Assembly: GCA_026397385.1 (NCBI GenBank) | Contig: JAPLUY010000040.1 | Location: forward strand, 1-38,083 | DNA: 38,083 nucleotides | Direction of reading: 5' to 3' | Origin: Candidatus Aenigmatarchaeota archaeon | GTDB taxonomy: Archaea > Aenigmatarchaeota > Aenigmatarchaeia > CG10238-14 > SCSR01 | Part shown: positions 4,745 to 37,934 of the stretch, in pieces | Layout of the letters: the number at the start of each line of letters is the position of its first letter | How positions within the stretch are numbered: the stretch's first letter is position 1 | Notes under the pieces: model-generated | Databases searched by the model: none | Seen by the model: the letters and a program-made list of their open reading frames with translations, nothing else | What the model was told of the DNA's origin: nothing | Program-made: the position numbers and the translations under genes

Positions 4745-5167
4745 TTGGATTCGCCCGAGATGCAGATGATCAAGTACAACTACGTGTTCGTGCACGTCGC
4801 GGTGCACCTGGCCGTGGCGGCGATGCTGTACTTCGTCGTAAATCCCAGCCTCACACTGGACATCGGCAAGGCTGCGGCCGTTGCGCTCGGCACGGCCGCG
4901 TTGGACTTCGACCACGTGCCGCTCTGGCTGAACGTGGGCATACGCGGCTACCTGAAGCTGCGGACGGTGGAGGAGTACGGCAAGCCGCGCAGGTACGCGC
5001 TGCACAACTTCATGGTCCTCTTCGTCGCGCTTGGCGGATCGCTGGTCATGGCGCTGAACGAGTACTTCCTCGTGGGGCTGTTCTTCGCTGCCGTCGTGAT
5101 GCACATCGCGTGGGACTTCGTCGAGGACGTCGCGGTCTTCAAGACGGGCTACAGGCACTGGATATGA
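4745..5167 (+). CDS. Hypothetical polytopic membrane protein (possibly DUF457/YdjM-like metal-dependent hydrolase)
   Basis: Four hydrophobic segments with conserved-looking His/Asp (LDFDHVP, HIAWDF). The track start is TTG at 4745, and ATG 4760 or 4766 are alternatives. The family guess is weak. Confidence 0.5.
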   Translation: MDSPEMQMIKYNYVFVHVAVHLAVAAMLYFVVNPSLTLDIGKAAAVALGTAALDFDHVPLWLNVGIRGYLKLRTVEEYGKPRRYALHNFMVLFVALGGSLVMALNEYFLVGLFFAAVVMHIAWDFVEDVAVFKTGYRHWI

Positions 5168-5237
5168 GTCCGGATGGAAATTTTTTCGCAGAGATGGTTG
5201 ATTGAAAAGAACGACTTCAAAAAAAGACGACAGCATT

Positions 5238-6001
5238 ATGGTCACCGGGATTGATGAGGCTGGAAATAGGCATGGCTGAGAGGCCGTCCTACCAGAAGAG
5301 GCGCGCTCATAGGCCCGATGGTAATATGCGGGATAACCGCGGAGAAACGCGTAGTCGCCAAGCTGAAGAAGATCGGTGTGCGCGACTCGAAGGAGCTGAC
5401 CCCGGAGAAGCGCGAGCGGCTTTACCCGATGATAAAGGAAATCGTGCAGACGGAGAGCCGGGCTTCCGGGATACTGCCGATCTTCGTACAGCCATGCAAA
5501 ATAGACGCGCAAAAATCGGAGAACAGCAACCTCAACCTGCTCGAGGCGCGCACGATGGCGCAGATCATCGGCACGATAGGCGGGGAGGAGGTCTACATAG
5601 ATGCGCTCACGTCGCGGCCGGAACGGTTCAAGAAGGTCGTTCTCGGCTTCCTCAACGAAGGCAAGAGCGGCAATGAACTGAAGATCGAGGGAAAAAATTT
5701 CCGCGTGATCGCCGAGAACAACGCTGACAAGACATACCCTATCGTCAGCGCGGCATCGATAATCGCAAAGGTCGAGCGCGACCGGGCGATAGAGGAGATA
5801 AAGAAGGAGGTGGGCGTGGACTTCGGCGTGGGCTATCCGCACGACGAGCGCACGGTGGCGTTCGTCGAACAGCTCATCAAGACGCACCGCCGGCTGCCGG
5901 CGTACGTGCGCAAGAGCTGGATAACTACGCAGGAGCTGCAGAGGCGCAACTGGCAGCGCAGGATAAAGGATTTTATCCTTGGAAAAGAGAAGAAGATGTA
6001 A
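5238..6001 (+). CDS. rnhB: Ribonuclease HII, reading frame interrupted by a 32-nt insert (5266..5297)
   Basis: ATG 5238 gives MVTGIDEAG, then NRHG-stop. The ORF-track ORF 5318..6001 is in another frame and, extended upstream, reads RGALIGP-MVICGITAEKR.... The body has RNase HII motifs (VRDSKELTPEKRE, YPIVSAASIIAKVERDR, GYPHDERT). Removing 5266-5297 joins GIDEAG to RGALIGPMV. Confidence 0.8.
5266..5297 (+). other. Candidate bulge-helix-bulge (relaxed HBh') intron in rnhB mRNA
   Basis: Central helix CUGG 5260-5263 : CCAG 5292-5295. Bulge AAA 5264-5266. Inner helix UAGG 5267-5270 : CCUA 5288-5291, plus AUGGC 5272-5276 : GCCGU 5283-5287 with loop UGAGAG. A second unpaired triplet, AAG 5296-5298, follows. 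Cuts after the 2nd bulge nt remove exactly this 32 nt and restore the frame. Confidence 0.5.
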
Positions 6002-11711: not shown

Positions 11712-14700
11712 TTGTACAAGGGCGTTGGTAAATACGCTGTCACGTTTCTGGCTCTCGCAGTCTTAGCAGGCGTTATGCTCGGCGGCCTGAACTCGATGGT
11801 GTCAAGCATCAGCGGATTCGCCTCCGCCGTAGGTTCGCCGTCCTCCGCCGGCAGCACTTATGACGTCTACACCTCCGGATCGGTATATTACGCCAAAGAC
11901 CCTTCCGGCAAAGTCATCTATTCCGATACGGACGCCGTGTCCGTGATACAGGCCGCGATTAACAAGGCCGCATATGGCGACTTGGTGCGCATAGAAGCCG
12001 GGAACTATGCGATTTCCAAGACGCTGTACGGCAAGAACGGCGTGTCGCTTTCAGGAAACGGGGCGGTTTTCAACGCCACGCGATACACCGGCATCTACAT
12101 CCTCAAGTACGTCGGCTCCGTCGTCAGCCAGGCTTCCCTCCAGTCCGCTTCGGCCGGCAGCACGTCGATAACGGTCGGTACGCCAAACTTCGCAGCGCCC
12201 GGCGACCTGATAAAGATATACGAAGGCGCGGTGTGGAAGAGCAACGGCATGGGGCAGATGAAAGGCGAGCTGGCAATCGTGGCGTCCGTGAGCGGAAACA
12301 CGCTCGTGCTCAAGACGCCGCTGATGGACAGCTACTCCGGAGCGCTCGTGGGCAAATACTCGCCAGTGAACGACTTCGAAATCTCCGGCCTCAAGGTCGT
12401 CGGATACGAGGGGAGCCAGCACGTGGGCATAACGATCTACGGCGGCACCAACATACACATCCATGACAACTCCTTCTACGACGTGGAGGTGCAGTCTATC
12501 GCCATAAGCGACGTGACAAACGCGCTCGTCGATTATAATTATTTCGAGAGGTCGGACGCTGCCGGGATGGGGTACGGCGTTGCTCTTGGCTATGCAACGG
12601 ACCACGTGATCGTGCAGTACAACGAAGGACACCATTGCAGGCACGTCATAGCCATCGGCGGTGGGGCGTCGACGTTCCCGCTAGGCGGCGTACCGCGCTA
12701 CCTCACGATGAAATACAACAAGGCATACGACAGCGGCGCGGACGGCGGCGGCTCCAGCTCGGCCTTCGACTGCCATTCGGTGGGCGAGCACATAGACTAC
12801 ATCGGCAACGAGGTCTACGGCGGCCTGCAGGGCATATGGGTCCAGCAGTACAGCGGGCTGATAGACGGCAACATCATCCAGGGCGTGACGAACCGCGGCA
12901 TAACTGTCACCAACTACCCGAACAACGGCGGGATTACGATTTCAGGCAACACCGTCGACGGGCCGGGCGCTTATGCGCTGCTTATAACAGAACCCAACGT
13001 CCTCGTCACGGGCAACACGCTGAGGAACGGCCTAGGCAGCGGCCTCGTCATAGACGGCGCGAACGGCACGAAGGTGTACGGGAACACCATATCCAACTTC
13101 GCCGGGAACGACATTGATATCTGGCACGGGAGCAGCAACACCGACATCTCCGGAAACACCATCTCCGGAGGCGCGAACAGCATAAAGATAGAGAGCGCCG
13201 ACTGCAAGCAGACCAACATCTACGGCAACTGCTTCACGGGGCGGAGCATAGTCGACTACGGCACCGGTACAATTATAGGCAAGGACGTATGCCCGGCGAC
13301 TACAACCATCACCGTGCCTTCATCGTCCACGTCAACGACCACCACCATCGCAGGCACTTGCACGACCCACGCTCAGTGCTCCCGGGCGTGCTCTGCGTCC
13401 TGCCCGGCCGGCGTGTACGGTTGCTGCTACGGCTGCAACCTGGGCCAGTGCGTCGGCGGCGCGTGTGTATGTTTGCAAGACACGCCGTACTGTTCCAACT
13501 TCCCGCCATACCAGGTGGGCAGCTCGTGCGCGTCCGGCACAACTACAACGACGGTCCCTCCGGCGACCACGACTACGTTGCCGTCGTGCACGTTGCTCAC
13601 GCTCTCGCCGTCATCGGGCGCGCCCGGCTACACGGTCACGGCCACGATGTCATACAGTACGTGCAAGATATGCGATTATCTCGGATGCTCGGGCAGCAGC
13701 TGCGTAGGCTCGCAGGGCCGCACGGGCAGCGGCACGTTCACATCACCGGGCGCGGCCGGGACGTTCGGATACTACGCCTGCCCGGGCGGAGGGCATGCGG
13801 TGATAATCGTCACTGCTGCTACTACAACGACGATTCCGGCAGCCACGTACAAGCTTACCATGTTATCATCCGTAGGCGGCACGACCGACCCGGCCGCGGG
13901 CGTGCGCACGTACCCGAACAACACATGGGTGAACATCACCGCCTACCCCGCGTCCGGTTACAGGTTCGTGAGATGGCTGAGGAACGGCGTGAACGCCTCG
14001 ACGGACAACCCGTCTTACCTGATAACGAATGCGGACAAGACGGCACAGCCCGTGTTCGAAACAATACCGACTACGACTACCACCGTCGCAGGAAGCTGCA
14101 CGACCCACGCTCAGTGCTCCCGGGCGTGCTCTGCGTCCTGCCCGGCCGGCGTGTACGGCTGCTGCTACGGCTGCAACCTGGGCCAGTGCGTCGGAAGCAA
14201 GTGCATATGCAGGCAGGATGCGCCGTACTGTTCCAACTTCCCGCCCTATCAGGTAGGCAGCTTGTGCACGTCTGCAACGACCACCACTACATCTACTTCC
14301 ACAACTACGACAACCGTCCCTTCCGGTTACACATACACCCTATCGATCTTAGGTTCGACCATCAAGGCTGTCAACTCCGCAGGCACAACGGTAAAAACCG
14401 GCTCAGATTTCGGAGCCGTTTTCAATTATCTAGACTCCGTACTTCAGACAGGCAACTCGATTCATCTCACCGGCGGAACATATCCTGTGTCAACCTTTGC
14501 AAAACTCACGAAGGCACAAACCCTCGTAGACGCCGACTCTGGTGCCATACTGAGCGGTCAGACCGGACTCAATCAGGATCCCCTGATGATAATCCAAGGA
14601 TTGCATAACACTGTTAAAGGCATAAACTTCGTCGACAACTACAGAGGTGGGGTCTCCTGCTCCGTAGTCATAATGGGTAGCTACAACACCGTCCGGGAAT

Positions 14701-17700
14701 GCACCCTAGACGACTCCGACCGCTACGGGTTCTGCACAGACGCGGCTGACCACTTCACCATCGTATATAATACCATTTACAAGGCACAGTACGGAATCTC
14801 AGGGAGCGACAACGGAGCCAACAGCGTGTGGTCTACCAACGGATACGTAGCCTACAACACGATCGGCGACTGCAACCAGTGCGGCATAAAGATGAAGATG
14901 TGGAAGGACGTCCTGGTCACCCAGAATACAATCGATGTCGGCTACAAAGAATGGGATAACACGTCTTACAACAATGGTCAGTTTTCAGACCCAAGCCGTT
15001 ACCAGACCTACGGGAGTGTCGGAATAAGATATTACCAAGCCGATACGCCCACGCAGAACGTGACGGTCAGCTACAACACCATAATCGACACCACTCGGAA
15101 ATATCCCAAAGGAGCCGGTATACTGGTGGATGCAGATAAACATTTGGATTGGACTAGCTGTCCCTACCCTGCTTCCGGCGAGAAGATCCTGCACAACACC
15201 GTGTCAACGCCTTGGTACGGCCTAATAATCCAGCACGATGGGGTGGATGCCGAATACAACGACTTTAGCGGCGTCACTGGCAGTCCAGGCATATTCAACG
15301 GTTGGGGAATCGACATCAGGGCGAACAACTGCCAAATCATTGGCAACACTGGTTCAATAAACAATCAGGGAACAGGGAACACGATAACATCCCCGATAAC
15401 AACTTCAACGACGACCACCACCATCGCAGGCACTTGCACGACCCACGCTCAGTGCTCCCGGGCGTGCAGCGCGCTCTGCCCTGCAGGCGTGTACGGTTGC
15501 TGCTACGGCTGCAACATAGGTCAGTGCGTCGGTGGCGCCTGCATATGCGAGCAGGACACGACGTACTGCTCTAATTTCCCGCCATACCAGGTGGGCAGCT
15601 CGTGCGCGTCTGCAACGACCACGACGATCCCGGCAGCCACGTACAAGCTTACCATGTTATCATCCGTTGGCGGCACGACCGACCCGGCTGCGGGCGTGCG
15701 CACGTACCCGAACAACACATGGGTGAACATCACCGCCTATCCGGCGTCCGGTTACAAGTTCGTGAGATGGTTGAGGAACGGCGTCAACGCTTCGACGGAT
15801 AACCCGTCGTACCTAGTAACGAACGCTGACAAGACGGCCCAGCCGGTGTTCGAAGCCACGACGACCACAACAACTATTATTCAGCCGACGACATCGACGA
15901 CTGCCACTTCCACGACGACAACAAGCACAACCACTACGATTCCATCGACGACGACCACGAGACCCTCGTCCACCACGACGACTGCGATCATTCCAACCAC
16001 TACGACTCTCCTTCAAACATGCAAGCTTGCAACAGTCACGCTAAAACAGAACTGCGCGGCCGGAAGCTCGTCCGCATGCGAACAGGGCGAGACTGTTGTC
16101 GTGTCGGGCACTTATACTGGCGACTGCGCCGCGGCGGACTTCCTGCAGGCAGACGCGCTCTCGAGCGACGGCCTTTGCGACATCGAGTACCTCGGCGGGA
16201 ACATGCGAGGCATAGGCGCGTCTTCCATAACATTGTCAGGCGGGACGGTCAGTGGCGCTTGGACTGTCCCAGTGATAGCGTCGGCATGCTCCGGGAAAAT
16301 CATAAGCCCGACCGCAGCGGCGCTGTACGACGGAGGCGCGCCAGGCACGGGCACGATGGTAAACATCACGCGAACTGTCGCAGGGTCTTTCGCGCTTGCC
16401 GCAGCTGCGACTACTACGACAATCACGACGACTACGACGAGCACGACCACCACGACCATTCCGCAGCCCTGCAAACTGACGTCTGTGTCATTGTCGCCGA
16501 ACTGCGCGGCCGGAAGCCCGTCCGCATGCGAACAGGGCGAGACTGTTGTCGTGTCGGGCACTTATACTGGCGACTGCGCCGCGACGGACTTCCTGCAGGC
16601 AGACGCGCTCTCGAGCGACGGCTCGTGCACGATACAGAACGCGGGCGGCAGCATGCAAGGCATCGCCACCGCAGTATCGCCGTCCGGCGGCGCGATTTCC
16701 AGCACATGGACCGTGCCTTTCATAAGCTCTGCGTGCTACGGGACGGTCATAAGCCCGGTGCGCGCCACGCTTTATACAGGCCTAGTGTCGTCCAGCTCGG
16801 CGACCTCCGTCAGCGGCTCCTTCGCGTTTGCCGCGTGCTCCAACCACGCGCAATGCTCGCAGGTCTGCTCGTCCTCGTGCGCGGCGAACGTCTACGGCTG
16901 CTGCTCCGGGTGCAACATAGGCCAGTGCAACTCCCAGACGCACAGATGCTACTGCTCTTCCGACAGCACGTACTGCTCGTCGGCCCCGTCGTACCAAGTG
17001 GGGCAGGCGTGCGGCGCGACGACCACGATCGTGCCCACGACGACAACGATAAAACCTACTACGACCACGACGACAATGCCGGCCACAACTACTACTAAAC
17101 CGCCGACGACTACCACGACAACCACACCCACAACAACGCCTTACACGGTGTCGGCATCGGGTTCCACATACACCGCTAAAAACCCGTCCGGCGGCGTCAT
17201 CTATTCGGGCTCTTCGGCGTCGACGGCCATACAATCTGCAATAACCAGCCTGCCGTCCGGAAGGACGTCAAAGGTAAAAATCTTACTGCAAGGCGATTTC
17301 ACACTAGCCAAGACAATAACCATCGCCAATTACATGGTCCTTGAACTTAACGGTAAAATAACTCTGGCGAATTCAGCGAACCAGCATATGCTTTACGCCA
17401 GCGGTAAGAGCAACTTCGAGATTATCGGTGGGGAGTGGGACGGCAACAAGGCGAATCAGGTCGGGTATGCCTATCAGAGCGATGTCAGGGGATTCGAGTT
17501 GGAGTCGTGCACTGACTACCTCGTAAGCGGCGTGACCGTCCACAACACCGTGGACGACGCGGTAGCCTCGCTTTACTGCTCCCGGGCGACGATTGACCAC
17601 AACAACGTATACGACTGCGGCGGAGCAATCCCGCTCTATTACACTAGCGACAGCCGAGTAACCAACAACATAATTCACGACGCCCATGCCGGAATCTACA

Positions 17701-20700
17701 TGTACACGGAGGACGATGGCATAGTGCAGCACGTGGACAACAACGTTGTCACGGGGAACACCGTCTCTAGGACCTGGCTCTCTGGCATAGTCGTTTCCCT
17801 TCGCGGGATGGAGGACTTCGGGCAGCATAACACGATAGCATACAACACCCTCATCGACTGCGGCACGGATCAGACCCACTCGGGCATCAGCATCGGCTGG
17901 GGGTTGGGAAACGCGGTCGTCGGCCACGCAGACTACAACGAATGCCACGATAACGAGATATACGAGACGGGAGCCTACGTCGTCAGCAATCCCATGGTGA
18001 TCAAGGGTGTGTCTAACCACGTGTGGTCGAACACGATACACGACGTGGGCACGACGGCCATAGTCATCAGCGGGCATGACAATCTGGTGGAGAACAACTC
18101 GGTGAGCAGGGTCAAGAACCTAGCTTCCTTCGGGATAGAGCTCTGGAACGCGAACAGCAACACGGTTCGGAACAACACCGTCAATCAGGTGCCGCATAGC
18201 TGCATCTGGCTGCTCAACGACTGCAGCGGGAACAAGATAGACGGGAATACTATCATGGGCTGGGGCGTTTACGGAGCATACATCGAGGGGAGCGGTAACT
18301 ACATAACCAACAACAAGTTCTACGGGCTCGCATCGACCATGATTATGGATTCCGGTGTCGGGAACGTGAAGACGAACAATATCAATTATCCCACCGCCAC
18401 GCCAACCACGACGACCGCACCGACCACGACAACGACTACAACCACACTTCCCTCGTGCACGTCGCTCACGCTTTTCCCTGCGTCGGGTGCGACGAGCTAC
18501 ACCGTGACGGCCACGATGCCGTACAGCACGTGCAAACTCTGCGATTATCTCGGATGCTCGGGCAGCAACTGCATGGGAACGTCAATACGCACGGGCAGCG
18601 GGACATTCACCGCGCCCGGAGCCGCGGGCGTGTTCGGATATTATGCATGCCCGGGCGGAGGGTATGCGAGTATAACGGTCGCCGCGGCGACAACGACTAC
18701 TGTGCCTGCGACCACTACGACCGTTCTTCCAACGACCACGACCTCGCCGACTCCGGCAGCTTACGGTTATACAGTTTCCACCGACGGCACCAACTATTAC
18801 GCCAAGACGGCTTCTGGAAATGTAGCAGCGCAAGGCACGGACTTCGGCGCGTTGATGAACACGCTCAACGGGCAACTTAAGACTGGCGACGTGGTACTTT
18901 TCAAAAACGGAGTTTACCTTGTCGGTGCGACCACCGTCACCAACGCGAACAAGGATGGCATAACGTATCGCGGCGAGAGCAGGGACGGGGCGATAATCAG
19001 GGCGGCTTCCGCGACATCGACCGGCGCGCTGCTCGTAATCTACAGCGGAGCGGGCGGCATGCACCCCGCGAACAACATCGTCCAGAGCCTCACATTCGAC
19101 GGCAACTTCAACACGGTCATCTCCCCGACGGTGGCGATAGGCGGCTACAACAACACCGTTGAGAACTGCCACTTCATCAACACGATGCAATACGGTCTGC
19201 ACGCGTGGCGCGGGCACAACTTCCGGTTCATCAACAACCGCGTGGAGAAGGCTCAGTACGGCATAAGCACGGGCGCGGACAACACCGAATGGAACACCGG
19301 CGGCATCATCGCGAACAATTACATCACCGACCCGATGGAGGTCGGGATAAAACTCAGGTGGATCAAGGACACGCTCGTGTACAACAACACGGTCGACGTC
19401 ACGTACGTGACGTGGCTCGGAGACGTATACAACGGCCTTTCGTACGACAACGCGGCCGGCATAACGTACTACCACGGCGACGGCCCGACCCAGAATGTGA
19501 CTGTTGCGAACAACACTATATACGACAGGTCGACTACACCAGGCGGGACGGCCGGCGTCTGGGTGTCCGCAGACAACCTTGCGAACCAGGGGTTGTCTTC
19601 GAGCATCTCGGCGAACGAGAAGATAATAAATAACACCATCTACGGCACGAACTGGGGCATAGGGTCGGCGCTCCCCGGCGTCGTGATACAGGGCAACACC
19701 ATATCGAACATCGTCGTCGGCTATTCGATGGGCGGGATGGGCATAGACCTTACGGCTTCACCGAACACTCAGATAACTTCAAACACGTTGGTCAACACGG
19801 GGATAAGCATACGCGGCAGCTCTTCCGGTGTAAGCATCTCCAAAAACACAATCTCCGGAGGCAACACCTACTGGCGGCTAGACGGCGACTGCATAGGCGT
19901 GTGGAACGACGGCACGTCGACGCACGCCGACAGAGCCGTTATAGACGGCAACACTATCAAGAACTGCAGGAGATACGGCGTCGACCTGTACAATTATATA
20001 TCCAATCCGGTCTCAGGCACGACAATAAGCAACAACTGCTTCTCAGCATCCGCGTCCGGAAACATCCTAGACGGCGGCACGGGGACTGTCAACACGAACA
20101 ACGCCGCATGTTCCACCGCGACAACCACTACGACGACTTCGACAACCAGTACAACGACCACTACGATGCCTTCGTGCACGTCGCTCACGCTCTCGCCGTC
20201 ATCGGGCGCGCCCGGGTACACCGTCACAGCGACGATGCAGTACAGCACGTGCAAGATATGCGATTATCTCGGCTGCTCGGGTAGCAGCTGCACAGGCTCG
20301 CAAGGCCGCACGGGCAGCGGCACGTTCACGGCGCCCGGGGCAGCAGGCGCGTTCGGATACTATGCGTGCCCGGGCGCAGGATACGGCACGCTGACAGTAG
20401 TCGCGCCCACTACGACCACCACACTCCCGGTCACCACGACTACGACCACAACGACATCTACGACAGTCCCGGCAACAGGCGGAACAACATACTCCGCAGA
20501 TTTCGAATCCGACGACTCGTTCAAATGGGGCGTAGACGGAGTGGGCGACTATATGTTATACGGCAACCACGTGACCAGCGGTTCCCCACCGCCGTATTGG
20601 ACAAGAGGAGGATGGCCGGCGTATGTGTACCCTGCAGCGCTGACCTTTACCCCGAGCACCCAATTCGTCCATGGCGGCACCCAGTCCGCCAAGCTCTCGA

Positions 20701-23700
20701 TCGTGAACACGAGCCTCGAAGCTACGAGGAGGCTCGAAGTGCTGCATGACTGGGATCCGTCCTCGTCACAATATCTGCAGGAGACGGTCTGGTACTACTT
20801 CCCGTCCTCGATCGCGCCGCTCGACGGCTGGGTGACCTTCCACAGGCCGGTCTACGAGCGGATGTGGGACCAGAACAAAGCCGTCTACTACCAGAACTTC
20901 CAGATATCGGTATCCGCGATGACCGATGGCAGGTCGGCGACGATCGGGCAGCAGATAATGGTCCTGAGCCTGGGCAAGGGCAACATCGACAACAACAACG
21001 ACGGCGTTACGGAGACGTGGACGAACATGAACGCCGACCTCTACTCCAATCGTGACTCCAGCCAGACCGTGCCCAGCTCTTGGCAGACCCAGCGGTCGGG
21101 GCTGCAGCTCCCACTTGACAAGTGGTTCAAGGTCACTTCCATTGTATACAGGAACCTCACCGACTTCAACAACGGCTACGTGAAGGTGTGGATCGACGAC
21201 AACCTCGTCTGGGACGTTCAGTGGACGAGGACGGTCGGCATCGCACCATCCGTGCTAAAAGCGATCGATTCGCTGCCGTCCGACCCTCAGGGATACTTAT
21301 GTTCGGGATTTGGTTTGTACACCGATATCGGTACGAAGCCTAAAACGATCTACGCCGATGATGTCACGATCTCCAGTTCGACGCTTTCATCATCCACGTA
21401 CAAGCTTACCATGTTATCATCCGTAGGCGGCACGATCGACCCGGTCCCCGGCGCGTACACGTATCCGAACAACACGAGGGTGAACATCACCGCCTATCCA
21501 ACGTCCGGCTACAGGTTCGTGCTATGGCTGAGGAACGGCGTTAACGCTTCGACAGACAACCCGTCATACCTGATGACGACCTCGGACAAGACGGCACAGC
21601 CGATGTTCGAAACCGTAACGACCACGACGCTCCCATCAACGACCACGACGCTCCCATCAACGACTACGACGATCAAGCCAACGACCACGACCCTTCCGCA
21701 GCCCTGCCGCCTGGCGTCCGCGTCATTGTCGCCGAACTGCGCGGGCGGCAGCTCGTCCGCATGCGAGAAAGGCGAGACGGTATCGATGTCCGGCACTTAT
21801 ACGGGCGACTGCGCCGCGGCGAACTTCCTGCAGGTCGACGCGCTATCGAGCGACGGCCTCTGCGACATCCAGTACGTCGGAGGGACCATGCAGGGCGTAA
21901 GCGCGCCTTCCATAACATTGTCTGGCGGAACGGTCAGCGGTTCATGGGCCGTACCTGTGATTGCATCCTCGTGCTCTGGTAAAACCATGAATCCTACTTA
22001 TGCAGCTCTCTGGAAAGGCGTGCCAGTCACGGGCACGCAGATTAACATGACCTCGTCGACGAGCGGCTCGTTAGCGCTCGCCGCCACTCCGACTACGACG
22101 ACAACCATAGCGCAGTCCACGACTACGACCCAGCAGAGTACCACTGCGTACGTGGTGTCGGCTTCCGGTTCCACGTACTACGCCAAGTCCCCGTCAGGAA
22201 GCACGCTCTACTCCGGCGCGTCAGCCACGTCCGCTATACAGACTGCGATAAACTCCGCAAGTGCCGGAAGCTCGGTGCTGCTGAAGGCAGCGACGTATCT
22301 TCTGGACAGTACGATATACGGCAAGAACGGAGTAAGCCTGAAGGGCGAAGCCGGATCGATACTTTCGCTCAGTAACCTCGGCACCTACGGCCAGGCCTTG
22401 GACTACAGCGGCACTACAGGCGCCTCCACGATCAGTGCCGCGCAGGCGGCAAAGGGAGCGACTTCGATAACTGTGTCGTCCGCATCGGGCATATCGGCCG
22501 GCAGCCTCGTCTTCATCTATAACAACGGCGTCGAATGGAAGGGTAACACCCGGCACCAGAAACAGGGAGAGATTCGCGCAGTAAGCTCGGTCAGCGGTGG
22601 CACCGTCTACCTGGCGCAGCCGCTCGAGGACACGTACGCGTCTGGGTCGAGTGTCGTCGTTGTCAATCCGGCGAAGAACTTCGAAGTGTCCGGACTGACA
22701 TTCAACGGAGTCCGAGGTCTTGACCAGTATGGCGTGACTGTCGAGTACGGCCAGAACGTGAAGATACATGACAACAACTTCAGCTATTGCCAACTGAACG
22801 GCGTAGGGTTCAGGAACGTCCTCGACTCGGAGATCTACAAAAACAGGATGGTGCATTCCGACACGGCCGGCTACGGGTACGGGGTGTCGCTGGCCTACGC
22901 CTGCCAGAATGTCTCGGTGTACGACAATTATATGGAGACGAACAGACACGCGATAGCCATCGGCGGCGGGTCGGGTGCGGGGATACCCAGGCATATCAAC
23001 CTGTACAGGGACCATTCATACAACGCCACGAACGCCGGCTTCGACTGCCATCCTGTCGGCGAGGACATCAACTATGTAAACTGCTGGTCTGAGAGCGACC
23101 AGCACGGGTTCAACGTCGAGATGTTCTCCGGTGTCGTTAGCGGCAACCTCGTGACGAACTCGCACGAGGAGGGCATCGAGATAAGCAACCTCGTCGGATC
23201 GGACAACGTCACGATATCTAACAACACGGTTGTCGGCTCATGGCACATGGGGATACAGTCGAACAGCAAGCGCGTCAACATACTTTACAACAACCTCACG
23301 AACTGTGGCCAGTCGGCCGGATACTACGCCATCTACCTCGCGCGCGGTTCCAACACGGACAACGACGCCATAGTCTACAACTACAGCGCCGACTATAACA
23401 ACATCTACGGGAACACCATCAAGTCGACCACCGGAAGCGGAACGACCTACATCGCCACCGGAGTGGTCGGCACGACTTACAATGCCCCAACCACGACTAC
23501 AACGACTTTGCCGTCGGCGAGCAACACTTACACAGTTTTGGTTTCGGGTTCGACATACACTTCAAAGAACCCATCGGGTTCGACAATCTACTCGGGCACC
23601 TTGGCTGCCTCCGCGATCCAGTCGGCGTTGAACTCCGTCGGGACGGGGCAGACCGTGTACATAAAAAGCGGCACCTATCCTATCAACTTGCCGCTGAGTG

Positions 23701-30872: not shown

Positions 30873-31343
30873 ATGGGAGCCGCGGCAGGTAGGCTTGACG
30901 CTTTTATGTCCGGTCTGGGGATATCGCCACTGGCGGCCGCAGTCATACTGATAGCAGTAACGATGACCGTCTCAGGCGTGCTTGCCTACTGGGCCACGAA
31001 CTTCGTCAATGCCCCGTCCGGAGCGGCCGCGACTGAGTCGTGCGGAGCGGCCGACTTTTTGATTTACTACTGCAATTTCGACAGCTCCAGCAGCAACCTC
31101 AACAGCAACCTCAACATAATACTCGAGAACCTCAAGAGCGTCGAACTGAACGACCTGCGCGTGTACTTGGTATATCAGGACTCGACCGTCTCCAACGCAT
31201 TGCCGCTCGGCTCTTCACTCTCGGGCGGCGTGCTCAAGTCGTACACCGTGACCGGCGTCGCTTCCAGCTTCGCCAAGATAGTCGTGAAGACTCAGTGCCC
31301 AGAGCTTACCAGAGAGGCGGTGTGCTCGAGGACCACGGGCTGA
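30873..31343 (+). CDS. Archaeal type IV pilin-like protein (class III signal peptide, DUF361-type N-terminus)
   Basis: GISPLAAAVILIAVTMTVSGVLAYW is the typical archaeal pilin/flagellin N-terminal hydrophobic segment. The start may be ATG 30906 (MSGLGISPL). Confidence 0.7.
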   Translation: MGAAAGRLDAFMSGLGISPLAAAVILIAVTMTVSGVLAYWATNFVNAPSGAAATESCGAADFLIYYCNFDSSSSNLNSNLNIILENLKSVELNDLRVYLVYQDSTVSNALPLGSSLSGGVLKSYTVTGVASSFAKIVVKTQCPELTREAVCSRTTG

Positions 31344-31373
31344 GTGGCGATTGTCGTTTTCAGAGAGGCTGCT

Positions 31374-31832
31374 ATGGCGCGCAAAAAGGCAATCTCCGAC
31401 ATGATAGCGACCGTGTTGCTGATAGCGTTCACGGTCGCGGTCGGCGGGATAATAAGCGTATGGATAACCGGCTTCACAACGCAGAGCACCGAGGCGGTCA
31501 CTTCGCAGTCTAACAACGCGCTCTACTGCGCGTACGCGGGCATGTCCGTGTCGAGCCTGAATTATTGCGGCGGCTATTTTTCCGGCATCGTGACCAACAC
31601 GAACCTCAAGGACATAGGCAACATAACCCTGCAGATAATCTACGACAACTCCAGCAGCCAGATGTTCAAGCTCAACAGCAGCGCCGGCGGAGCGGCGATG
31701 GCACTCACGCCGCGGCAGATAGACTCGTTCAACATATCCATCGGCGGGAGCAACTACAACAAGATACACTTCTACGCCAACTGCTCCAATGTGTACGACG
31801 ACGCGACGAGCGCGGACGTAACGGCCTGCTGA
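31374..31832 (+). CDS. Archaeal type IV pilin-like protein 2
   Basis: MARKKAISDMIATVLLIAFTVAVGGIISVW is a class III signal. The track ORF begins at GTG 31344, but ATG 31374 gives the canonical short basic leader. Confidence 0.7.
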   Translation: MARKKAISDMIATVLLIAFTVAVGGIISVWITGFTTQSTEAVTSQSNNALYCAYAGMSVSSLNYCGGYFSGIVTNTNLKDIGNITLQIIYDNSSSQMFKLNSSAGGAAMALTPRQIDSFNISIGGSNYNKIHFYANCSNVYDDATSADVTAC

Positions 31833-31841
31833 GCATCCTCC

Positions 31842-32849
31842 TTACCCGGCCACGGCGAACACGACGAACCCGACGAGCATCATCAGCGCGCTGTGCTTCA
31901 CACCGCCCAGTATCTCGCCTTCGGCCATCTTGCCTACGGACAGGCCGGCGAACAGGCCCTGTATGATTATCAGGTTGCGGAAGATGACCTTGTACTCGCC
32001 TGCGATGTCCAAAGACTGCGGCCCGGATGCGCTTCCTGTGAGCGAACCGAGCGATCCGGCCACGCCCGCGCTGTTGATGTTTCCGAGGCTGGGGACGAGG
32101 AAATTCTGCAGGCCCAGCATCACGCCCAGGAAGACGAAGAACACCACGTAGCCTGTTATCATCTGCGAGTTCATCGACAGACTCCTCTCTTGGCGTAGCC
32201 TGTCTATCTGCACCGCAGTATTGCTCAGCGCCTCGAACGTGTCAGAGATGTTCCCGCCGAACCTCTGGCTCTCGACGACCGAGGAGATTATCCGCATTAT
32301 CAGCTTGGATTTGCTGCGCTTGCCGAAGCTTATCATGACGCGCTCAACCGCGATGCCCCAGTCGAGCTGCGCTGCCATGCGCTTGACGTACGAGTTGAGC
32401 GCCTTGTAGTCGTTCTTCGCAACGGCCTTTATAGCCGCGGGCAGGGTCATGCCGCCGCGTATGGTCTCGACGAAGTCTCGCAGGAATACGGGGAACATCT
32501 CCTCGATCTCCTTGACCTCGTTGTACTCCGTGTACCTGAGCAGCACTATGGGCAGCGCGAATATGACAACGGCGATTATGTTTATTGTGGAGAACAGCTC
32601 AGGCACGTCGCTGAGCATGAGGAAGTTTATGGTGAGTATGGATGCGACCAACGCCGTGTTCAGCGCTATCATCAGCAGTACTTTCTTCTTCAGCGTGAAC
32701 TTCGCTACCCTCAGGTCTATGACCAGCTCGTCCGCATCCCTGATCTCCAGATCGGCGTACTGCGGCACGGCCGCGTTCACTGACGGCGGCTTCACCGGCT
32801 CCGGCTCCCTCGTGTCGACCCTCGGCTTCTTCGTTTCAGGTTCGGACAT
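31842..32849 (-). CDS. T2SS-F domain membrane protein (FlaJ/TadC-like, C-terminal-half equivalent)
   Basis: IEEMFPVFLRDFVETIRGGMTLPAAIKAVA...LDWGIAVERVM...FGGNISDTFEALS, plus TM helices. Confidence 0.8.
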   Translation of the reverse strand: MSEPETKKPRVDTREPEPVKPPSVNAAVPQYADLEIRDADELVIDLRVAKFTLKKKVLLMIALNTALVASILTINFLMLSDVPELFSTINIIAVVIFALPIVLLRYTEYNEVKEIEEMFPVFLRDFVETIRGGMTLPAAIKAVAKNDYKALNSYVKRMAAQLDWGIAVERVMISFGKRSKSKLIMRIISSVVESQRFGGNISDTFEALSNTAVQIDRLRQERSLSMNSQMITGYVVFFVFLGVMLGLQNFLVPSLGNINSAGVAGSLGSLTGSASGPQSLDIAGEYKVIFRNLIIIQGLFAGLSVGKMAEGEILGGVKHSALMMLVGFVVFAVAG

Positions 32850-32852
32850 GGC

Positions 32853-33725
32853 TTACATCTCCACCTCGGTGCCCTGCAGGAACGCCAGGAACCCCAGGTT
32901 CAGCATCGGCACGATCCCGTATATGCTCACCTTGACCAGGAAAAGTATGTCGAACCCGGCTATGGTGGGCTGTATCATGTTCATGACCGCGAACAGCGCT
33001 ATGATGAAGAGAGGCGCTGCTATCATTATGCCGGTGTAGAACTCCGAGTAGGCGTCCAGCGACTGCAGGTAGCGCTCGCGCTTGATGCGCCAGTCGAACA
33101 GCGCCGAGTCGCCGGCGTTCTTCAGGAAAACTTTCACGTCTCCGCCCGACTCCGTGGTCGTGACGAAACCGAGCAGCATCTGCTTCAGCTTATCCGACGG
33201 CGTCCGCTCCGCCACTTCCTTGACGGCCTTCAGTGGGTCCAGCCCGAAGTTGTCCATGTTGCGGACTATCTTCTTCATCTCGTTGGCCACCTGGCCGTAC
33301 TCGTTGAACTCGGATATGAGCTTGAATATCACGTACGGCGGCACGCCCGATTCCGCGACGGCGCCCATGTGCGTCAGCACGAACGGCAGGTTCGTCTCGA
33401 TGCTCTTCTTCCGCTCGGTCAGTTTCTGGTAAGGATAGAAGACCATCATCGTCATAGCCGATATGCCCACGAGGAACGGGATGAAGAGCACGTACACGAC
33501 CTCCATCATGAACGACACGGCGACGAACCTAAGCACGAAAAGCAGCATCACCAGCGAGGCTACGTACGCTACGACGGACGTCATGAACACGCCGCTCATG
33601 TACGTTCGGAACGTCACGTATATGTCCGCCTTCGGAAGGCTGGTCCTCACGATGGAGAAGTTCTCGCCGTACTTGTCCACCAGCCCGCCGAACACCGAGT
33701 CGGCCAAGGAGTTGAAGTTGGCCAT
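32853..33725 (-). CDS. T2SS-F domain membrane protein (FlaJ/TadB-like, N-terminal-half equivalent)
   Basis: IETNLPFVLTHMGAVAESGVPPYVIFKLIS...GLDPLKAVKEVAERTPSDKLKQ...ESGGDVKVFL, plus TM helices. It is in the same frame as the next ORF, separated only by TAA and one codon. Confidence 0.8.
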   Translation of the reverse strand: MANFNSLADSVFGGLVDKYGENFSIVRTSLPKADIYVTFRTYMSGVFMTSVVAYVASLVMLLFVLRFVAVSFMMEVVYVLFIPFLVGISAMTMMVFYPYQKLTERKKSIETNLPFVLTHMGAVAESGVPPYVIFKLISEFNEYGQVANEMKKIVRNMDNFGLDPLKAVKEVAERTPSDKLKQMLLGFVTTTESGGDVKVFLKNAGDSALFDWRIKRERYLQSLDAYSEFYTGIMIAAPLFIIALFAVMNMIQPTIAGFDILFLVKVSIYGIVPMLNLGFLAFLQGTEVEM

Positions 33726-33765
33726 AGGCTTACAATTATTATTCGTGCCCCATTAAGAAAATGCT

Positions 33766-35970
33766 TTACACGGCGGCCATGTTGCGCAGCTCCCGCTTCA
33801 GCTGCTCTCGCATCTCCTTCACGAACTTGAAGTTGAAGAGACCCAGCACGGCAGGGGTGCCGTTGAACGGACCGACGTAGCCTATCTGCGCTCCGGTTTT
33901 CGCTGCCTCCTCCTCGCCCGTCCCGGCCAGCCCGCCGCGCATCTTGCCTTCTGCAGCCAGCTTCTCGATATCCGCCTCCTCCTTCGCCATGCTATCGAGC
34001 GGATTCTCGGCAGCCATGAAGTTCAGCGGCTTCGGCCTTTCCGCCTTCGCGGCAGGCCGCCTCGGCGGTTCCGGTTCGACGGCCACGGGCTCCGGTTCCG
34101 GCGGCGCGGTCACTGGCACCGGCTCGAACACGAGGACCTGCGGTTGCGGCCTCGCGACAGGCGGGGGCGCTACAGTCTCGGCCGGCCGCGGAAGGATTGC
34201 CGGCCTCGGTATCACGACGGGCTCCACCGCCCTCAGCGGCTCCGCCTCATTCTCTATTATGACTTCCGGCTGCATCGGCAGCGGATGCAGCTCCTCGATC
34301 TTCCCGATCTTTATCTCGGCGTCCTTGGGCGTCTGGAAGGCCCCAATCTGCGCCATCAGTACCTTCGGTTCCTTGTAGTAGCGGTTTATAATCTTCGTGA
34401 CCTCGGCAAAGTCGGTTATGCCCTGGGCGCGCATCCACTCGAGCACGCGCGTGCGCTGCTTGATCTCCTTGGCCGCGTCCTCGGCACTGCCGCCCTTGGC
34501 CTCCACGAGCTTCCTGACCATTATGCTGGTGTTCAGCTGCAGGAACCTGTCCGCGACCGGGTCCCACGTGAACACGACGTTCGTCTTCACTTCGGCCGTC
34601 TTGGGGTCGACGCTGATTATCTCCGTGACCTCCTTCATGCGCCGCGCGGACTTGCCCTTCTCGCGCGCGTGCACCATAACCGCGATGACGTTCAAGCTCT
34701 CTATCAGCGTGGGCGAGAGGTCGATTGGCGGAGTCGTCAGCCTCTTGACGACACTGTCGACGGACCCACCGTGGAACGTGCTCATGCTCGGGTGGCCGGA
34801 GCTCATCCCTTGGAACATGACGTAGGCCTCGGGGCCGCGCGTCTCACCGACTATCACATAGTCGGGATTCTGCCTGAAACTCTGCTTCAGGAGGTCGAAC
34901 AGCGATACGCCTCCGTACTTCTCGCCGCCCGGAAGCGGTATCCCGAATCCCACGCGCGCGAGCGTCGGCACCCAGTGTTCGTTCGGTATGCGCAGCTCGC
35001 GCGTGTCCTCGATGCTGACAATCTTAGACTCGGGCGGTATGAACATGCATATGCTGTTGAGGAAGCTCGTCTTGCCGGTCGCGACGCCGCCGACCACGAG
35101 TATCGACGCGCCGTACTCGATTAAGTACCAGAAGTATGCCATCAACGGGGAGGAGATGGTCTTCGAGTTTATGACGTCGATCGGCGAGAACGGCCGCTCG
35201 CTGAACTTGCGGATTGTGAACGTCGGGCCGCGCGCGTACATCGGTGCACCGGTGCCGTCGCAGCTGATGTCCTCTATGTTCGGGTCCTGGAGGAATGGCT
35301 CGATCTCGTTGAAGCCTACGAAGTTGCGGTAGATGAAGTACATTATGCGCGCATATTGCGCGGGCGGCAGGTCCAGTCCGAACTGGCGGAGTATCTTAGC
35401 AATCTGCTTCTCGAGATACTCGATTATCTTGCCCTCCTCCTTGATGGACGTCAGTTCGACTTCGACGAGCTCGATGAGGGCTTCGGATATCTTCTTGATC
35501 ATCTGCCTGTCCTTGTCGTCAAGCTCCGGCTGTATGACGTTGTAGACGAGCTCCTTGTTGACCGAGTCCCACTTTATGTTAGCGTATGCGAACGGCTCGA
35601 TCAGAGGATAAGTGATGTCGATCTGCGATATGTCGTCGTACTTTGGGAAGTCTATGTTGGGCTTGACGTTCTTCAGCCTGAACCCCGGAAGCGCCATCAT
35701 CTCCGGCTCGGCCGGTTTCTTCGTTTTCTCCACGTTCTCCGCTTCAGGTCCCTTCCCCACCTTCGTGCGGGCCATCTGGTCGGTTATCACGCGGTACAGC
35801 GCGCCGCGCATGGAGCCTATCCGTTCCAGTCTGTCGGTTATGCCGCTCAGTATTCCGGGCTGCGCTTCGGCCGGCTGCTGCTTCTTCGGAGCCGCGTCAG
35901 CATCCGGGGTCTTTGACTGGTCCACGGGCTGCGGCTGCGCTTCTGCTTTCGGAGGATTCTCGTCGGCCAT
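33766..35970 (-). CDS. FlaI/GspE-family secretion ATPase (type IV pilus/archaellum assembly), atypical architecture
   Basis: NIEDISCDG, RGPTFTIRKF, Walker A GGVATGKTS, SIEDTRELR, Walker B PDYVIVGETRG, STFHGGS. It also has P/Q/A-rich N-terminal (~95 aa) and Pro-rich C-terminal (~190 aa) extensions. Confidence 0.9.
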   Translation of the reverse strand: MADENPPKAEAQPQPVDQSKTPDADAAPKKQQPAEAQPGILSGITDRLERIGSMRGALYRVITDQMARTKVGKGPEAENVEKTKKPAEPEMMALPGFRLKNVKPNIDFPKYDDISQIDITYPLIEPFAYANIKWDSVNKELVYNVIQPELDDKDRQMIKKISEALIELVEVELTSIKEEGKIIEYLEKQIAKILRQFGLDLPPAQYARIMYFIYRNFVGFNEIEPFLQDPNIEDISCDGTGAPMYARGPTFTIRKFSERPFSPIDVINSKTISSPLMAYFWYLIEYGASILVVGGVATGKTSFLNSICMFIPPESKIVSIEDTRELRIPNEHWVPTLARVGFGIPLPGGEKYGGVSLFDLLKQSFRQNPDYVIVGETRGPEAYVMFQGMSSGHPSMSTFHGGSVDSVVKRLTTPPIDLSPTLIESLNVIAVMVHAREKGKSARRMKEVTEIISVDPKTAEVKTNVVFTWDPVADRFLQLNTSIMVRKLVEAKGGSAEDAAKEIKQRTRVLEWMRAQGITDFAEVTKIINRYYKEPKVLMAQIGAFQTPKDAEIKIGKIEELHPLPMQPEVIIENEAEPLRAVEPVVIPRPAILPRPAETVAPPPVARPQPQVLVFEPVPVTAPPEPEPVAVEPEPPRRPAAKAERPKPLNFMAAENPLDSMAKEEADIEKLAAEGKMRGGLAGTGEEEAAKTGAQIGYVGPFNGTPAVLGLFNFKFVKEMREQLKRELRNMAAV

Positions 35971-36056
35971 CGGAGCATCGCCCGTCCAGCCCGTCCGATG
36001 ACGGGCACTAACGGTTCGAACAGTCGCACGGAGAATTCAAAGGAGCGTCGGGTGGC

Positions 36057-36344: not shown

Positions 36345-36380
36345 TTTCCCAACTCCTTTGAAATATCCTGCACGTTGTTC

Positions 36381-36388: not shown

Positions 36389-36485
36389 GTATTCTCTCGG
36401 CATGGGTAATAAAGTTGGGAGCAGGCGAAAAGCGTTAAAGCCGAGGACGCGTAAAATAGATTACAATACGGACGGTGCGTTGGAT

Positions 36486-37934
36486 ATGCCGCTGAAAGAT
36501 CAGCTGAAGGAGGTCAGGAAGGACGTTTGGGAGCTGCCAGCGTCCGCGAAGCCGGGCATGCGCGTGCCTGCGAGAATGTTTCTGTCGAAGAAGCTGCTCG
36601 GCGATGTCGAGGAAGGCGCGCTGGAACAGGTCGCGAACATCGCATTCCTTCCGGGCATCCAGCAGAACAGCATCGCGATGCCTGACATGCACTTCGGCTA
36701 CGGTTTCCCGATAGGCGGCGTGGCGGCGCTCGACTATGAGACGGGCGGTCTGAGCCCTGGCGGTATAGGTTTTGACATAAACTGCGGGGTTCGGCTTCTG
36801 CGTTCGAACCTCCGAGCGGACGACATACGTCCGAAACTGCCGAAGCTGCTTGATGCTGTTTTTCACAACGTGCCGTCCGGTGTGGGCGTGGGCGGTAAGA
36901 TAAAGCTCACCGCAGCGCAGCTGCGCGACGTGCTCGAACGCGGAGCGGCCTGGGCAGCGGAAAACGGCTACGGCACGAAGCGCGACATCGAGCACCTGGA
37001 GGAGCGCGGATGCATGAAGGGCGCGGACGCGTCGAAGGTTTCTGACAAGGCGCTGAAGCGCGGGGCTCCGCAACTGGGCAGCCTCGGCGCGGGCAACCAC
37101 TTCCTCGAAGTGCAGCGCGTTGAACGCGTGTTCCTGCCGGACGTCGCGAAGGCGTTCGGCATCACTGGCGAAGGACAGGTGACGTTTATGATACACTCGG
37201 GCTCCCGGGGGCTCGGGCACCAGGTCTGTACGGACTATCTGCAGACCCTGGAGAACAAGTTCCGTGACGAAATCCGCAGCCTGCCAGACCGCGAGCTCGT
37301 CTACGCCCCGGCAGGCACCAAGGAGTGCGACGCCTATTTTGCGGCGATGGCGTGCGGCGCGAACTTCGCCTGGACCAACCGGCAGATGATAATGCACTGG
37401 GTGCGCGAGAGCGTGCTGCAGGCGCTCGGAGCGAAGGAAGCGGATGCCGGCATAGAAGTGGTGTACGACGTGGCGCACAACATCGGCAAGATCGAGGAAC
37501 ACGAGATAGACGGCCGCAAGCGCAAGGTGTACGTGCACCGCAAGGGCGCGACGCGCGCGTTCCCCGCCGGGCACGCGGACATACCTGCCGATTATCGCAA
37601 GTTCGGCCAGCCCGTGCTGATCCCCGGTTCTATGGGAACGGCGTCGTACGTGCTAGTGGGCACGGAGACGGCGAAAGAGACGTTCTACTCGACCGCTCAC
37701 GGAGCCGGCCGGGCAGCTTCGCGCACGAAGATGCTGCGCGGCATGAGCGGCCAGGACGTTGCGAAGAAGCTGCTCGACGCCGGAATCCTGAGCAAGGCCG
37801 CGAACTGGCAGGTCATGGCCGAAGAGGCTCCCGAGGCGTACAAGGACGTGGACGAAATCGTGCGCGTCTGTGAAAGCACGGGCATAGCGCGCATAGTCGC
37901 GAAGTTGCGACCTATGGCCGTGGCGAAAGGATGA
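36486..37934 (+). CDS. rtcB: RtcB RNA 3'-phosphate ligase (tRNA-splicing ligase)
   Basis: MPDMHFGYGFPIGGV, GFDINCGVRL, GAGNHFLE, HSGSRGLGHQV, VAHN, HRKGATRA, PGSMG, TAHGAGR. The track ORF starts at 36402, but ATG 36486 (MPLKDQLKEV...) gives the usual ~482 aa. No intein is present. Confidence 0.92.
   Translation: MPLKDQLKEVRKDVWELPASAKPGMRVPARMFLSKKLLGDVEEGALEQVANIAFLPGIQQNSIAMPDMHFGYGFPIGGVAALDYETGGLSPGGIGFDINCGVRLLRSNLRADDIRPKLPKLLDAVFHNVPSGVGVGGKIKLTAAQLRDVLERGAAWAAENGYGTKRDIEHLEERGCMKGADASKVSDKALKRGAPQLGSLGAGNHFLEVQRVERVFLPDVAKAFGITGEGQVTFMIHSGSRGLGHQVCTDYLQTLENKFRDEIRSLPDRELVYAPAGTKECDAYFAAMACGANFAWTNRQMIMHWVRESVLQALGAKEADAGIEVVYDVAHNIGKIEEHEIDGRKRKVYVHRKGATRAFPAGHADIPADYRKFGQPVLIPGSMGTASYVLVGTETAKETFYSTAHGAGRAASRTKMLRGMSGQDVAKKLLDAGILSKAANWQVMAEEAPEAYKDVDEIVRVCESTGIARIVAKLRPMAVAKG

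Follow-up and report, generated by a model that had tools for sequence, protein, structure and literature searches.

The stretch analysed here, referred to as the window, comprises positions 1–38,083 of the metagenome-assembled contig JAPLUY010000040.1 (assembly GCA_026397385.1) from a Candidatus Aenigmatarchaeota archaeon (DPANN). Its nearest match in the genome collection at the locus of interest is a Candidatus Aenigmatarchaeota metagenome-assembled genome (MAG), and remoter protein relatives are named Aenigmarchaeota. The locus contains rnhB, the gene for RNase HII, in the gene order HIT, TBP, YdjM-like protein, rnhB, 88-aa protein, AspRS, all or part of which is kept in relatives. The main rnhB open reading frame (ORF), from ATG 5318 to 6001, encodes 227 amino acids (aa) and is the part that gene callers report; the public annotation of the window gives a 230-aa RNase HII at 5309–6001 (+), beginning MGPMVICG (P0123), with no pseudogene flag. 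This ORF lies in the +2 frame relative to ATG 5238, from which a short ORF reads MVTGIDEAGNRHG and ends at TGA 5277–5279. The parts of the gene, in the interpretation developed below, are as follows.

5202..5265, + strand: exon 1 of rnhB; start TTG 5202 (probable) or ATG 5238
5266..5297, + strand: putative 32-nt intron, AUAGGCAUGGCUGAGAGGCCGUCCUACCAGAA; absent from six relatives of 79–92% identity, present in L001 and L007 with 3–10 substitutions
5298..6001, + strand: exon 2 of rnhB, GA GGC GCG … to the stop codon; ratio of nonsynonymous to synonymous substitution rates (dN/dS) 0.10–0.19

Exon 1 encodes (MKRTTSKKDDSI)MVTGIDEAG and the first base of an Arg codon, and so carries the first two catalytic carboxylates (D and E) of RNase HII. 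A preliminary description of this DNA had begun exon 1 at ATG 5238. Its reading of that ORF stands, but the start is probably TTG 5202, because KKDDSIMVTG is conserved with the N-terminus of intronless relatives (P0002: KKDDCVLVTG). The intervening 32 nt hold a stop codon in the frame of exon 1 (UGA 5277–5279) and another in the frame of exon 2 (UAG 5267–5269). Deletion of 5266–5297 gives MVTGIDEAGRGALIGPMVICGI…, joining the short exon 1 (…VTGIDEAG) to the long rnhB ORF; a GAA repeat at the two junctions makes deletions shifted by −1 to −3 nt sequence-equivalent. The predicted spliced junction is GATGAGGCTGGA|AGAGGCGCGCTCATAGG (in RNA, GCUGGA|AGAGGC), with predicted tryptic peptides …GIDEAGR / GALIGPMVICGITAEK, and the spliced product is a 243- or 255-aa RNase HII in which the catalytic motif GIDEAGRGALIGP is intact. 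The score against Pfam RNase_HII rises from 108 bits (profile positions 15–199) for the ATG-5318 product to 143.5 bits (positions 2–199) for the spliced product. The sequences and positions of the insert, ORFs and stops in the preliminary description were correct base for base, and its claim that loss of exactly these 32 nt, or of equivalents shifted by 1–3 nt, restores the motif was confirmed.

EndA, the archaeal tRNA-splicing endonuclease, cuts after the second nucleotide of each bulge in the bulge–helix–bulge (BHB) geometry of tRNA precursors. The elements of the rnhB transcript to which this geometry can be applied are listed below.

5254..5258, + strand: 5′ strand of a displaced outer helix, AUGAG (codons GAU GAG), pairing with CUCAU 5306–5310 in minimum-free-energy (MFE) folds
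5260..5263, + strand: 5′ strand of the central 4-bp helix, CUGG, in exon 1, pairing with 5292–5295; all four pairs covary across intron types
5264..5266, + strand: 5′ bulge, AAA, 3 nt; predicted 5′ cut between 5265 and 5266
5267..5291, + strand: inner intron hairpin, UAGG 5267–5270:CCUA 5288–5291, C5271 bulged, AUGGC 5272–5276:GCCGU 5283–5287, loop UGAGAG
5292..5295, + strand: 3′ strand of the central helix, CCAG, at the 3′ end of the intron
5296..5298, + strand: unpaired AAG; predicted 3′ cut between 5297 and 5298; opens an 8–10-nt asymmetric loop, with no closed 3-nt bulge
5306..5310, + strand: 3′ strand of the displaced outer helix, CUCAU (codons CUC AUA), in MFE folds

The helices, the AAA bulge, the AAG and the AUGAG:CUCAU pairing had all been named in the preliminary description; each is present, and the MFE fold of the window allele gives the same architecture. 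The proximal four pairs of the inner hairpin, like the central helix, covary across intron types. G5259/C5260 can alternatively pair with G5303/C5304.

The insert is absent from the closest relatives. The six closest protein clusters (79–92% identity, 256–258 aa) are full length and read …TGIDEAGRGA[LM]IGPMV…, identical to the predicted junction, and the DNA of these relatives is uninterrupted. The junction codons are GCN GGN CGN GGN in these genes (with GGC for Gly in 5/6) as against GCU GGA A|GR GGN in interrupted ones. In one intronless relative, L003:3010-3050 (CAZEGD010000006), the junction is GCT GGA AGA GGA, the exact spliced sequence of the window's intron type (type A), whereas the other intronless relatives use GGN CGN; L003 could be an empty target site or a case of precise intron loss.

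Comparison with other relatives, which the preliminary description had proposed, yielded the insert in 13 further alleles at the same site (L032, described below, lies 6 nt away), with differing sequences and one architecture. The resulting 14 interrupted alleles were drawn from NCBI, JGI, ENA and Logan assemblies; they have inserts of 20, 28, 29, 29, 32 (six alleles), 33, 33, 37 and 38 nt with 10 distinct core sequences. At least three archaeal groups are represented, the alleles belonging to Aenigmatarchaeota, to Hadarchaeota, to a single Bathyarchaeota MAG and to a single MAG with the label Hodarchaeaceae. Among those closest to the window, a 32-nt insert at the identical site differs by 3 substitutions in L001 and by 10 in L007/L013; in L007 the distal hairpin has changed from G:C to A:U at 5274:5285 and 5275:5284. 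Remoter Aenigmatarchaeota also carry type A inserts, of 32 nt in L023 and L031 and of 38 nt, with a longer hairpin, in L025. Other Aenigmatarchaeota inserts are of different sequence: type B in L028 (37 nt, AGGA AG|U … UCCU AA|A), type C in L029 (33 nt, in frame with an internal UGA, CGGU AG|A … GCCG UU|A) and that of L037 (33 nt, in frame with an internal UAA). The shortest is a minimal 20-nt intron in Aenigmatarchaeota DRTY-6 (L032:1190-1209, JAVZHQ010000001), which reads GACG AA|A UUGC UUUUU GCAA CGUC AA|G. This insert separates the codons for Glu and Ala in DEAG, a second insertion site that lies 6 nt upstream of the other, and has an 8-bp outer helix; the NCBI protein call at this locus is MPEQRQAGRGALIGP… (P0049-like).

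Outside Aenigmatarchaeota, the same Arg codon is broken in Hadarchaeota (L056:594-621, 28 nt; L111:1171-1202, 32 nt), in Bathyarchaeota (L058:1171-1199, 29 nt) and in L043 (L043:1171-1199, 29 nt), and all four inserts fold as near-canonical BHB motifs. L043 carries the label Hodarchaeaceae, yet its gene is 76% identical in nucleotides to that of Hadarchaeota L056, so that mislabelling or misbinning is possible. Among 80 rnhB loci of GTDB species representatives, 74/80 were contiguous and 6/80 interrupted (L032, L037, L043, L056, L058 and L111). Of the 120 protein clusters closest to the window's RNase HII, 13 look interrupted: ten are truncated at or near the internal Met, and three (P0019, P0027 and P0062) are ORFs that read through the 3′ end of the intron, marked by the peptide …TRRGAL… encoded by ACCAGAAGAGG.

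The type-A core was found in rnhB and nowhere else in the sequence examined, and a pattern scan of the whole collection gave one Aenigmatarchaeota representative and two bacterial matches that are taken as chance; a repeated mobile element was rejected as an explanation, within the sequence examined. Two features were noticed post hoc. In 9/11 introns inspected a stop codon in the frame of exon 1 lies inside the intron, 3–6 codons from the 5′ splice site (the stop of L043 straddles the 3′ junction and that of L032 comes immediately after the intron), and several unrelated types (window, L007, L025 and L028) share the motif CUGA within or close to the hairpin loop. Both may be due to chance, or to selection for early termination on unspliced mRNA.

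To relate the inserts to the cleavage rule, all deletions restoring G[IVLM]D[DE]AGRG…GP were listed for each allele, and these were then tested for the required geometry, in which a 3-nt bulge separates a 4-bp helix from an inner helix of at least 4 bp and the cuts fall 2 nt 3′ of each strand of the 4-bp helix. The rule held at the protein-required sites in 14/14 interrupted alleles, with …DEAGRG…GP restored exactly; the central helix of L037 consists of 3 bp and a C·A mismatch. At one fixed pair of sites the chance frequency of the rule is 4.6e-4 in this window. The coincidence first described for the window, that an EndA-type rule removes the same 32 nt as the protein needs, is thus repeated in every allele, the rule yielding the correct peptide in all 14. 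The inserts shift the frame by 0, 1 or 2, and both in-frame 33-nt inserts have stop codons. A single recoding trick therefore cannot explain them, because all three frame relations occur and the in-frame inserts carry stops.

Covariation was scored in a splice-site-anchored alignment of the 10 distinct cores, which replaced a MAFFT alignment that misaligns types B and C in the intron. Of the core cells 98.8% were paired, compared with 54% in shuffles (0/500 of which reached the observed value) and 36–42% in slid registers, and the covariation score was 1.19 against 0.26 in shuffles. The preliminary description had suggested that compensatory changes be sought in the helices of relatives; two-sided changes were found at all 8 core pairs.

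The motif formed by these pairs is of the relaxed class. A canonical hBHBh′ motif has two opposed 3-nt bulges, a 4-bp helix, and outer and inner helices; the window allele departs from this, having an 8–10-nt loop on the 3′ side and a displaced outer helix. The features of the relaxed HBh′/bulge–helix–loop (BHL) forms, a 4-bp helix, a 3-nt bulge, an adjoining helix and an unpaired second site, were found in 14/14 interrupted alleles (in L037 with the 3 bp and C·A helix). In alleles of the Hadarchaeota type (L043, L056 and L111) the fold is a near-canonical hBHBh′, its outer helix having 3 bp and its 3′ bulge 4 nt, and independent MFE folds gave the same architecture in 7/8 Aenigmatarchaeota alleles. 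The codons GAU GAG … CUC AU[ACU], which form the displaced outer helix, are fixed in interrupted alleles: GAUGAG and CUCAU occur together in 7/8 interrupted alleles compared (L031 reads AUGAA) and in 0/8 intronless ones, a count weakened by the shared ancestry of this tract. The earlier characterization of the outer helix as poor and displaced, and of the motif as relaxed (HBh′), was borne out, and AUGAG:CUCAU was kept in these 7/8 alleles.

Both exons are under purifying selection. dN/dS is 0.10–0.19 between interrupted alleles, the same as for intact pairs, and four close interrupted alleles align without gaps to intact ones over 242 codons. Further frameshifts in relatives, which the preliminary description had named as the mark of a decaying pseudogene, were not seen. 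Exon 1 keeps GIDEAG through synonymous changes (ACC GGG AUU, ACU GGA AUC and ACG GGA AUA), and this synonymous variation across interrupted alleles shows that exon 1 is translated.

The intron is patchily distributed in the rnhB tree, in which interrupted alleles fall in three subclades, each with an intact sister of 87–93% identity; one 90%-identity cluster contains both 227-aa and 258-aa members, that is, interrupted and intact genes. Similarity also switches along the coding sequence (CDS). Over its first ~90–140 nt the window CDS is like L001 at 33 informative sites versus 8, and over the rest it is like its intact sister L018 (77 versus 15; Fisher p = 1.5e-12); L001 changes partner in the same manner, resembling first the window and then L022 (p = 7e-10). 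Both p values refer to the best breakpoint, with no correction for the search that located it. Since match partners switch along the CDS and the 90% cluster is mixed, the intron and ~100 nt of flanking exon have a phylogeny of their own, which indicates spread or erasure by homologous recombination. The intron looks like an evolutionarily mobile passenger that homologous recombination across the strongly conserved DEAGRG codons either spreads or erases. Its tract is like those left by co-conversion of homing introns, although here without a homing endonuclease. As a separate observation on the same loci, the content of mobile elements differs among the close relatives L007, L022, L023 and L008: the MCM gene upstream of the locus carries a LAGLIDADG intein in L007 (1-829) and not in L022 or L023, and L008 has a free-standing LAGLIDADG/helix–turn–helix (HTH) ORF after AspRS.

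Taken together, the comparison strongly supports the proposal of the preliminary description that rnhB is split by a relaxed, archaeal-type BHB (HBh′-type) intron of 32 nt lying exactly at 5266–5297, through the 13 further alleles, the covariation and the intronless junctions; we put the probability of this reading at about 0.85, from sequence comparison. In the proposed pathway, CUGG of exon 1 and CCAG at the 3′ end of the intron would form the 4-bp helix in the transcript. On its inner side the AAA bulge would lead into the intron hairpin, and on its outer side AAG would open the larger loop closed by the exon–exon pairing AUGAG:CUCAU. EndA would then cut after 5265 and after 5297, RtcB from the window would join the exons, and the spliced mRNA would be translated into active RNase HII. 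Unspliced mRNA would yield only a 13–25-aa peptide, or an N-terminally truncated protein without the Asp-Glu pair, and the intron might have a regulatory role. The products of EndA cleavage carry 2′,3′-cyclic phosphate and 5′-OH ends, and the excised intron is often circularised.

The ligase of this pathway is encoded near the end of the window.

36402..37934, + strand: RtcB RNA ligase; Pfam RtcB 563 bits, NCBIfam RtcB family

Since residue 76 is the first to match the Pfam profile, RtcB probably starts downstream of 36402. The preliminary description had placed both RtcB and archease in the window. RtcB is there (563 bits), but archease is not: the candidate ORF just upstream of RtcB (35998–36438, +) has no Pfam, NCBIfam or PDB match, is rich in Arg, Ser, Leu and Cys and looks spurious, and no archease was found among the other unassigned window ORFs scanned. 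The BHB motif consists of two 3-nt bulges separated by a 4-bp helix, and relaxed forms are cut only by EndAs with a specificity loop, the L3 loop in DPANN and Hadesarchaea or the L1 loop in TACK lineages (PMC5829648). The interrupted alleles lie mainly in these groups, which is consistent with the pathway, as an argument from consistency only. No tRNA genes were found in the window or in the 18 loci scanned, and hence no tRNA introns for inferring EndA specificity.

Several points weigh against this reading. No EndA was found among the window ORFs scanned, and the 3′ splice site of the window allele lies outside a closed 3-nt bulge, making the motif a relaxed one that needs a broad-specificity EndA. 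The 64-nt region is not unusually stable (z = −1.1), and the structural motif by itself is weak evidence; the 43-nt core of the window allele has z = −3.0, and those of other types −2.1 to −3.5. A scan for the generic canonical BHB pattern had no discriminating power, the pattern being no commoner in the window than in shuffles (75 versus 31–72 matches). Within type A (6 alleles) the core helices are invariant and RNAalifold finds no covariation. Finally, up to four sequence-equivalent cut positions per allele were chosen from with the rule in mind, which slightly favours the rule and applies to the covariation analysis as well. As a check for other BHB introns in the window, its Pfam-annotated genes were inspected, and none looks truncated.

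The insert could also be bridged in translation, by a −1/+1 frameshift, by stop readthrough or by a hop like that in T4 gene 60, with the hairpin as recoding signal. A stable hairpin does lie just 3′ of GGA AAU, and there are in-frame stops near the 5′ junction, as in gene 60. Bypass of the gene 60 type requires a take-off codon and a matching landing codon on either side of the gap, and a stop directly after take-off. In the window the would-be take-off codon GGA 5262–5264 is followed by AAU, not by a stop, and lacks a matching landing codon, there being no GGA before AGA GGC and the sole downstream Gly codon being GGC; in L029 a GGU-to-GGU hop would remove Arg-Gly. UAG 5267–5269 and UGA 5277–5279 leave ~8 nt for a frameshift, which would bring ~11 unconserved residues into the catalytic motif, and the peptides encoded by the inserts are not conserved. 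The frame shifts of 0, 1 or 2 among alleles would moreover call for three different mechanisms. Frameshift, readthrough and bypass were therefore rejected on stop positions, mixed frame relations and absent landing codons, and we consider recoding very unlikely. Removal at the RNA level without EndA, through self-cleavage, a different endonuclease or a system that depends on guide RNA, is just as hard to credit, even though the 3′ site lies outside a canonical bulge and no EndA was seen in the window. Group I and II self-splicing introns have a catalytic core of hundreds of nucleotides and match Rfam; the inserts, at 20–38 nt, are far below this size, and Rfam gave no match in the whole window at gathering score, nor in 5150–5400 at E ≤ 10. 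EndA-type geometry is the sole invariant feature across the 10 sequence types, and the Hadarchaeota versions are near-canonical BHB motifs.

It is improbable, if a little less so, that the gene functions only from the internal Met (ATG 5318) or is a decaying pseudogene, in which exon 1 would be a relic and the insert neutral and never removed. Gene callers and NCBI annotate only the 227/230-aa product, and in many alleles an ATG lies 20 nt past the insert. This Met (Met17), however, belongs to the conserved GPMV motif of intact genes as well, and the truncated product has no Asp-Glu pair and covers the Pfam profile only from position 15. Exon 1 retains GIDEAG with synonymous changes in lineages of only 53–67% protein identity, and the length class, position and paired helices of the insert are kept, with compensatory changes. 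A pseudogene was rejected on the dN/dS values, the absence of added frameshifts and the conserved exon 1. That the insert is an indel or chimeric join arising in sequencing or assembly has to be considered for any metagenome-assembled contig, but here it is next to inconceivable: an independent Logan contig carries the identical 227-aa ORF, relatives in the 90% cluster have the same truncated length in JGI and ENA assemblies, the L007-type allele is on at least 4 contigs from different samples, and P0050 is on 11 contigs. An artefact was rejected because the same allele occurs in independent assemblies.

An EndA-processed rnhB intron has few precedents. One is the cbf5 pre-mRNA intron of Crenarchaeota (Watanabe 2002). 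Crenarchaeal cbf5 was cited in 2018 as the only spliced archaeal protein-coding gene (PMC5829648), and in 2020 the only BHB substrates known beyond tRNA and rRNA were crenarchaeal cbf5 mRNA and the 5′ untranslated region (UTR) of HVO_1309 (PMC7714728), in agreement with the preliminary description, which had held such introns in archaeal protein-coding genes to be documented essentially for cbf5 only. A full-text literature search gave no report of an rnhB intron or of BHB introns in DPANN mRNA; its coverage is incomplete, and an earlier description elsewhere is possible.

Like the rnhB intron, that of cbf5 is short, BHB-like and often relaxed, lies inside an archaeal ORF from which it must be removed to give a conserved protein, and is patchily distributed in lineages with broad-specificity EndA; its gain and loss have been inferred (PMC2738675, Yokobori 2009). 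The rnhB intron differs in lying in the codons of the DEAGRG catalytic motif and in being found in Aenigmatarchaeota/DPANN, Hadarchaeota and one Bathyarchaeota MAG. Its sequence types are numerous, and a second site, used in L032, lies at a distance of 6 nt; it is also polymorphic for presence and absence within a 90%-identity cluster, and shows a clear co-conversion-like recombination signature. Splicing of cbf5 is proven by experiment; that of the rnhB intron is predicted from sequence. Archaeal tRNA introns at 37/38 share the arrangement in which the 4-bp helix takes one strand from the 5′ exon and the other from the intron's 3′ end, together with cuts after the second bulge nucleotide, a similar size (~12–100 nt) and the presence of RtcB ligase. 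They are of the hBHBh′ form at 37/38 and relaxed (HBh′/BHL) elsewhere. The rnhB host, in contrast, is an mRNA without a tRNA body, and in the window allele the 3′ site is in an 8–10-nt loop and the displaced outer helix is made of codons. The Haloferax volcanii HVO_1309 intron is likewise a small (46 nt) EndA substrate in an mRNA (PMC7714728), but it lies in an untranslated leader, leaves the coding frame uninterrupted, has a canonical BHB and is proven experimentally. In eukaryotes, HAC1/XBP1 also has a small frame-changing mRNA intron that is cut by a structure-recognising protein endonuclease and joined by RtcB; there the endonuclease is IRE1, acting on paired 7-nt loops, and splicing is stress-regulated. 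No homology is implied.

Assignment of the rnhB intron to the archaeal mRNA BHB introns is well supported by the comparison, with an unexpectedly wide phylogenetic spread and a recombination signature. After cbf5, rnhB is probably only the second family of archaeal protein-coding genes found to depend on RNA splicing, and with a second family EndA-dependent mRNA splicing would be more than an isolated case. Its ten sequence types, two sites 6 nt apart, mixed 90% cluster and intron-centred recombination tract form a natural experiment on intron gain, loss and sliding, and the intron offers a short, defined substrate outside tRNA on which the relaxed specificity of splicing endonucleases from DPANN and Hadarchaeota could be tested. 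There is also a consequence for annotation: gene callers, including that of NCBI on this contig, give a truncated RNase HII without two catalytic residues, and ~13/120 of the closest clusters likewise look mis-called.

We tentatively suggest, at somewhat less than even odds, that the rnhB intron is a mobile BHB mini-intron without a homing endonuclease, which moves between lineages, and possibly between archaeal phyla, by homologous recombination via the near-invariant DEAGRG codons, co-converts ~100 nt of flank and so makes RNase HII expression dependent on EndA and RtcB. If this were true, the catalytic-motif codons would be a recurrent landing site, and archaeal mRNA introns would be commoner, and more systematically missed by annotation, than the lone cbf5 case suggests.

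Two further features of the window lie away from rnhB. A single ORF at 11712–25520 (+) encodes a giant protein of 4602 aa; giant proteins are common in DPANN genomes. A type IV pilus/archaellum-like cluster occupies 30873–35970 and contains two pilin-like ORFs (archaellin/pilin N-terminal domain), two T2SSF membrane proteins and a 734-aa T2SSE ATPase.

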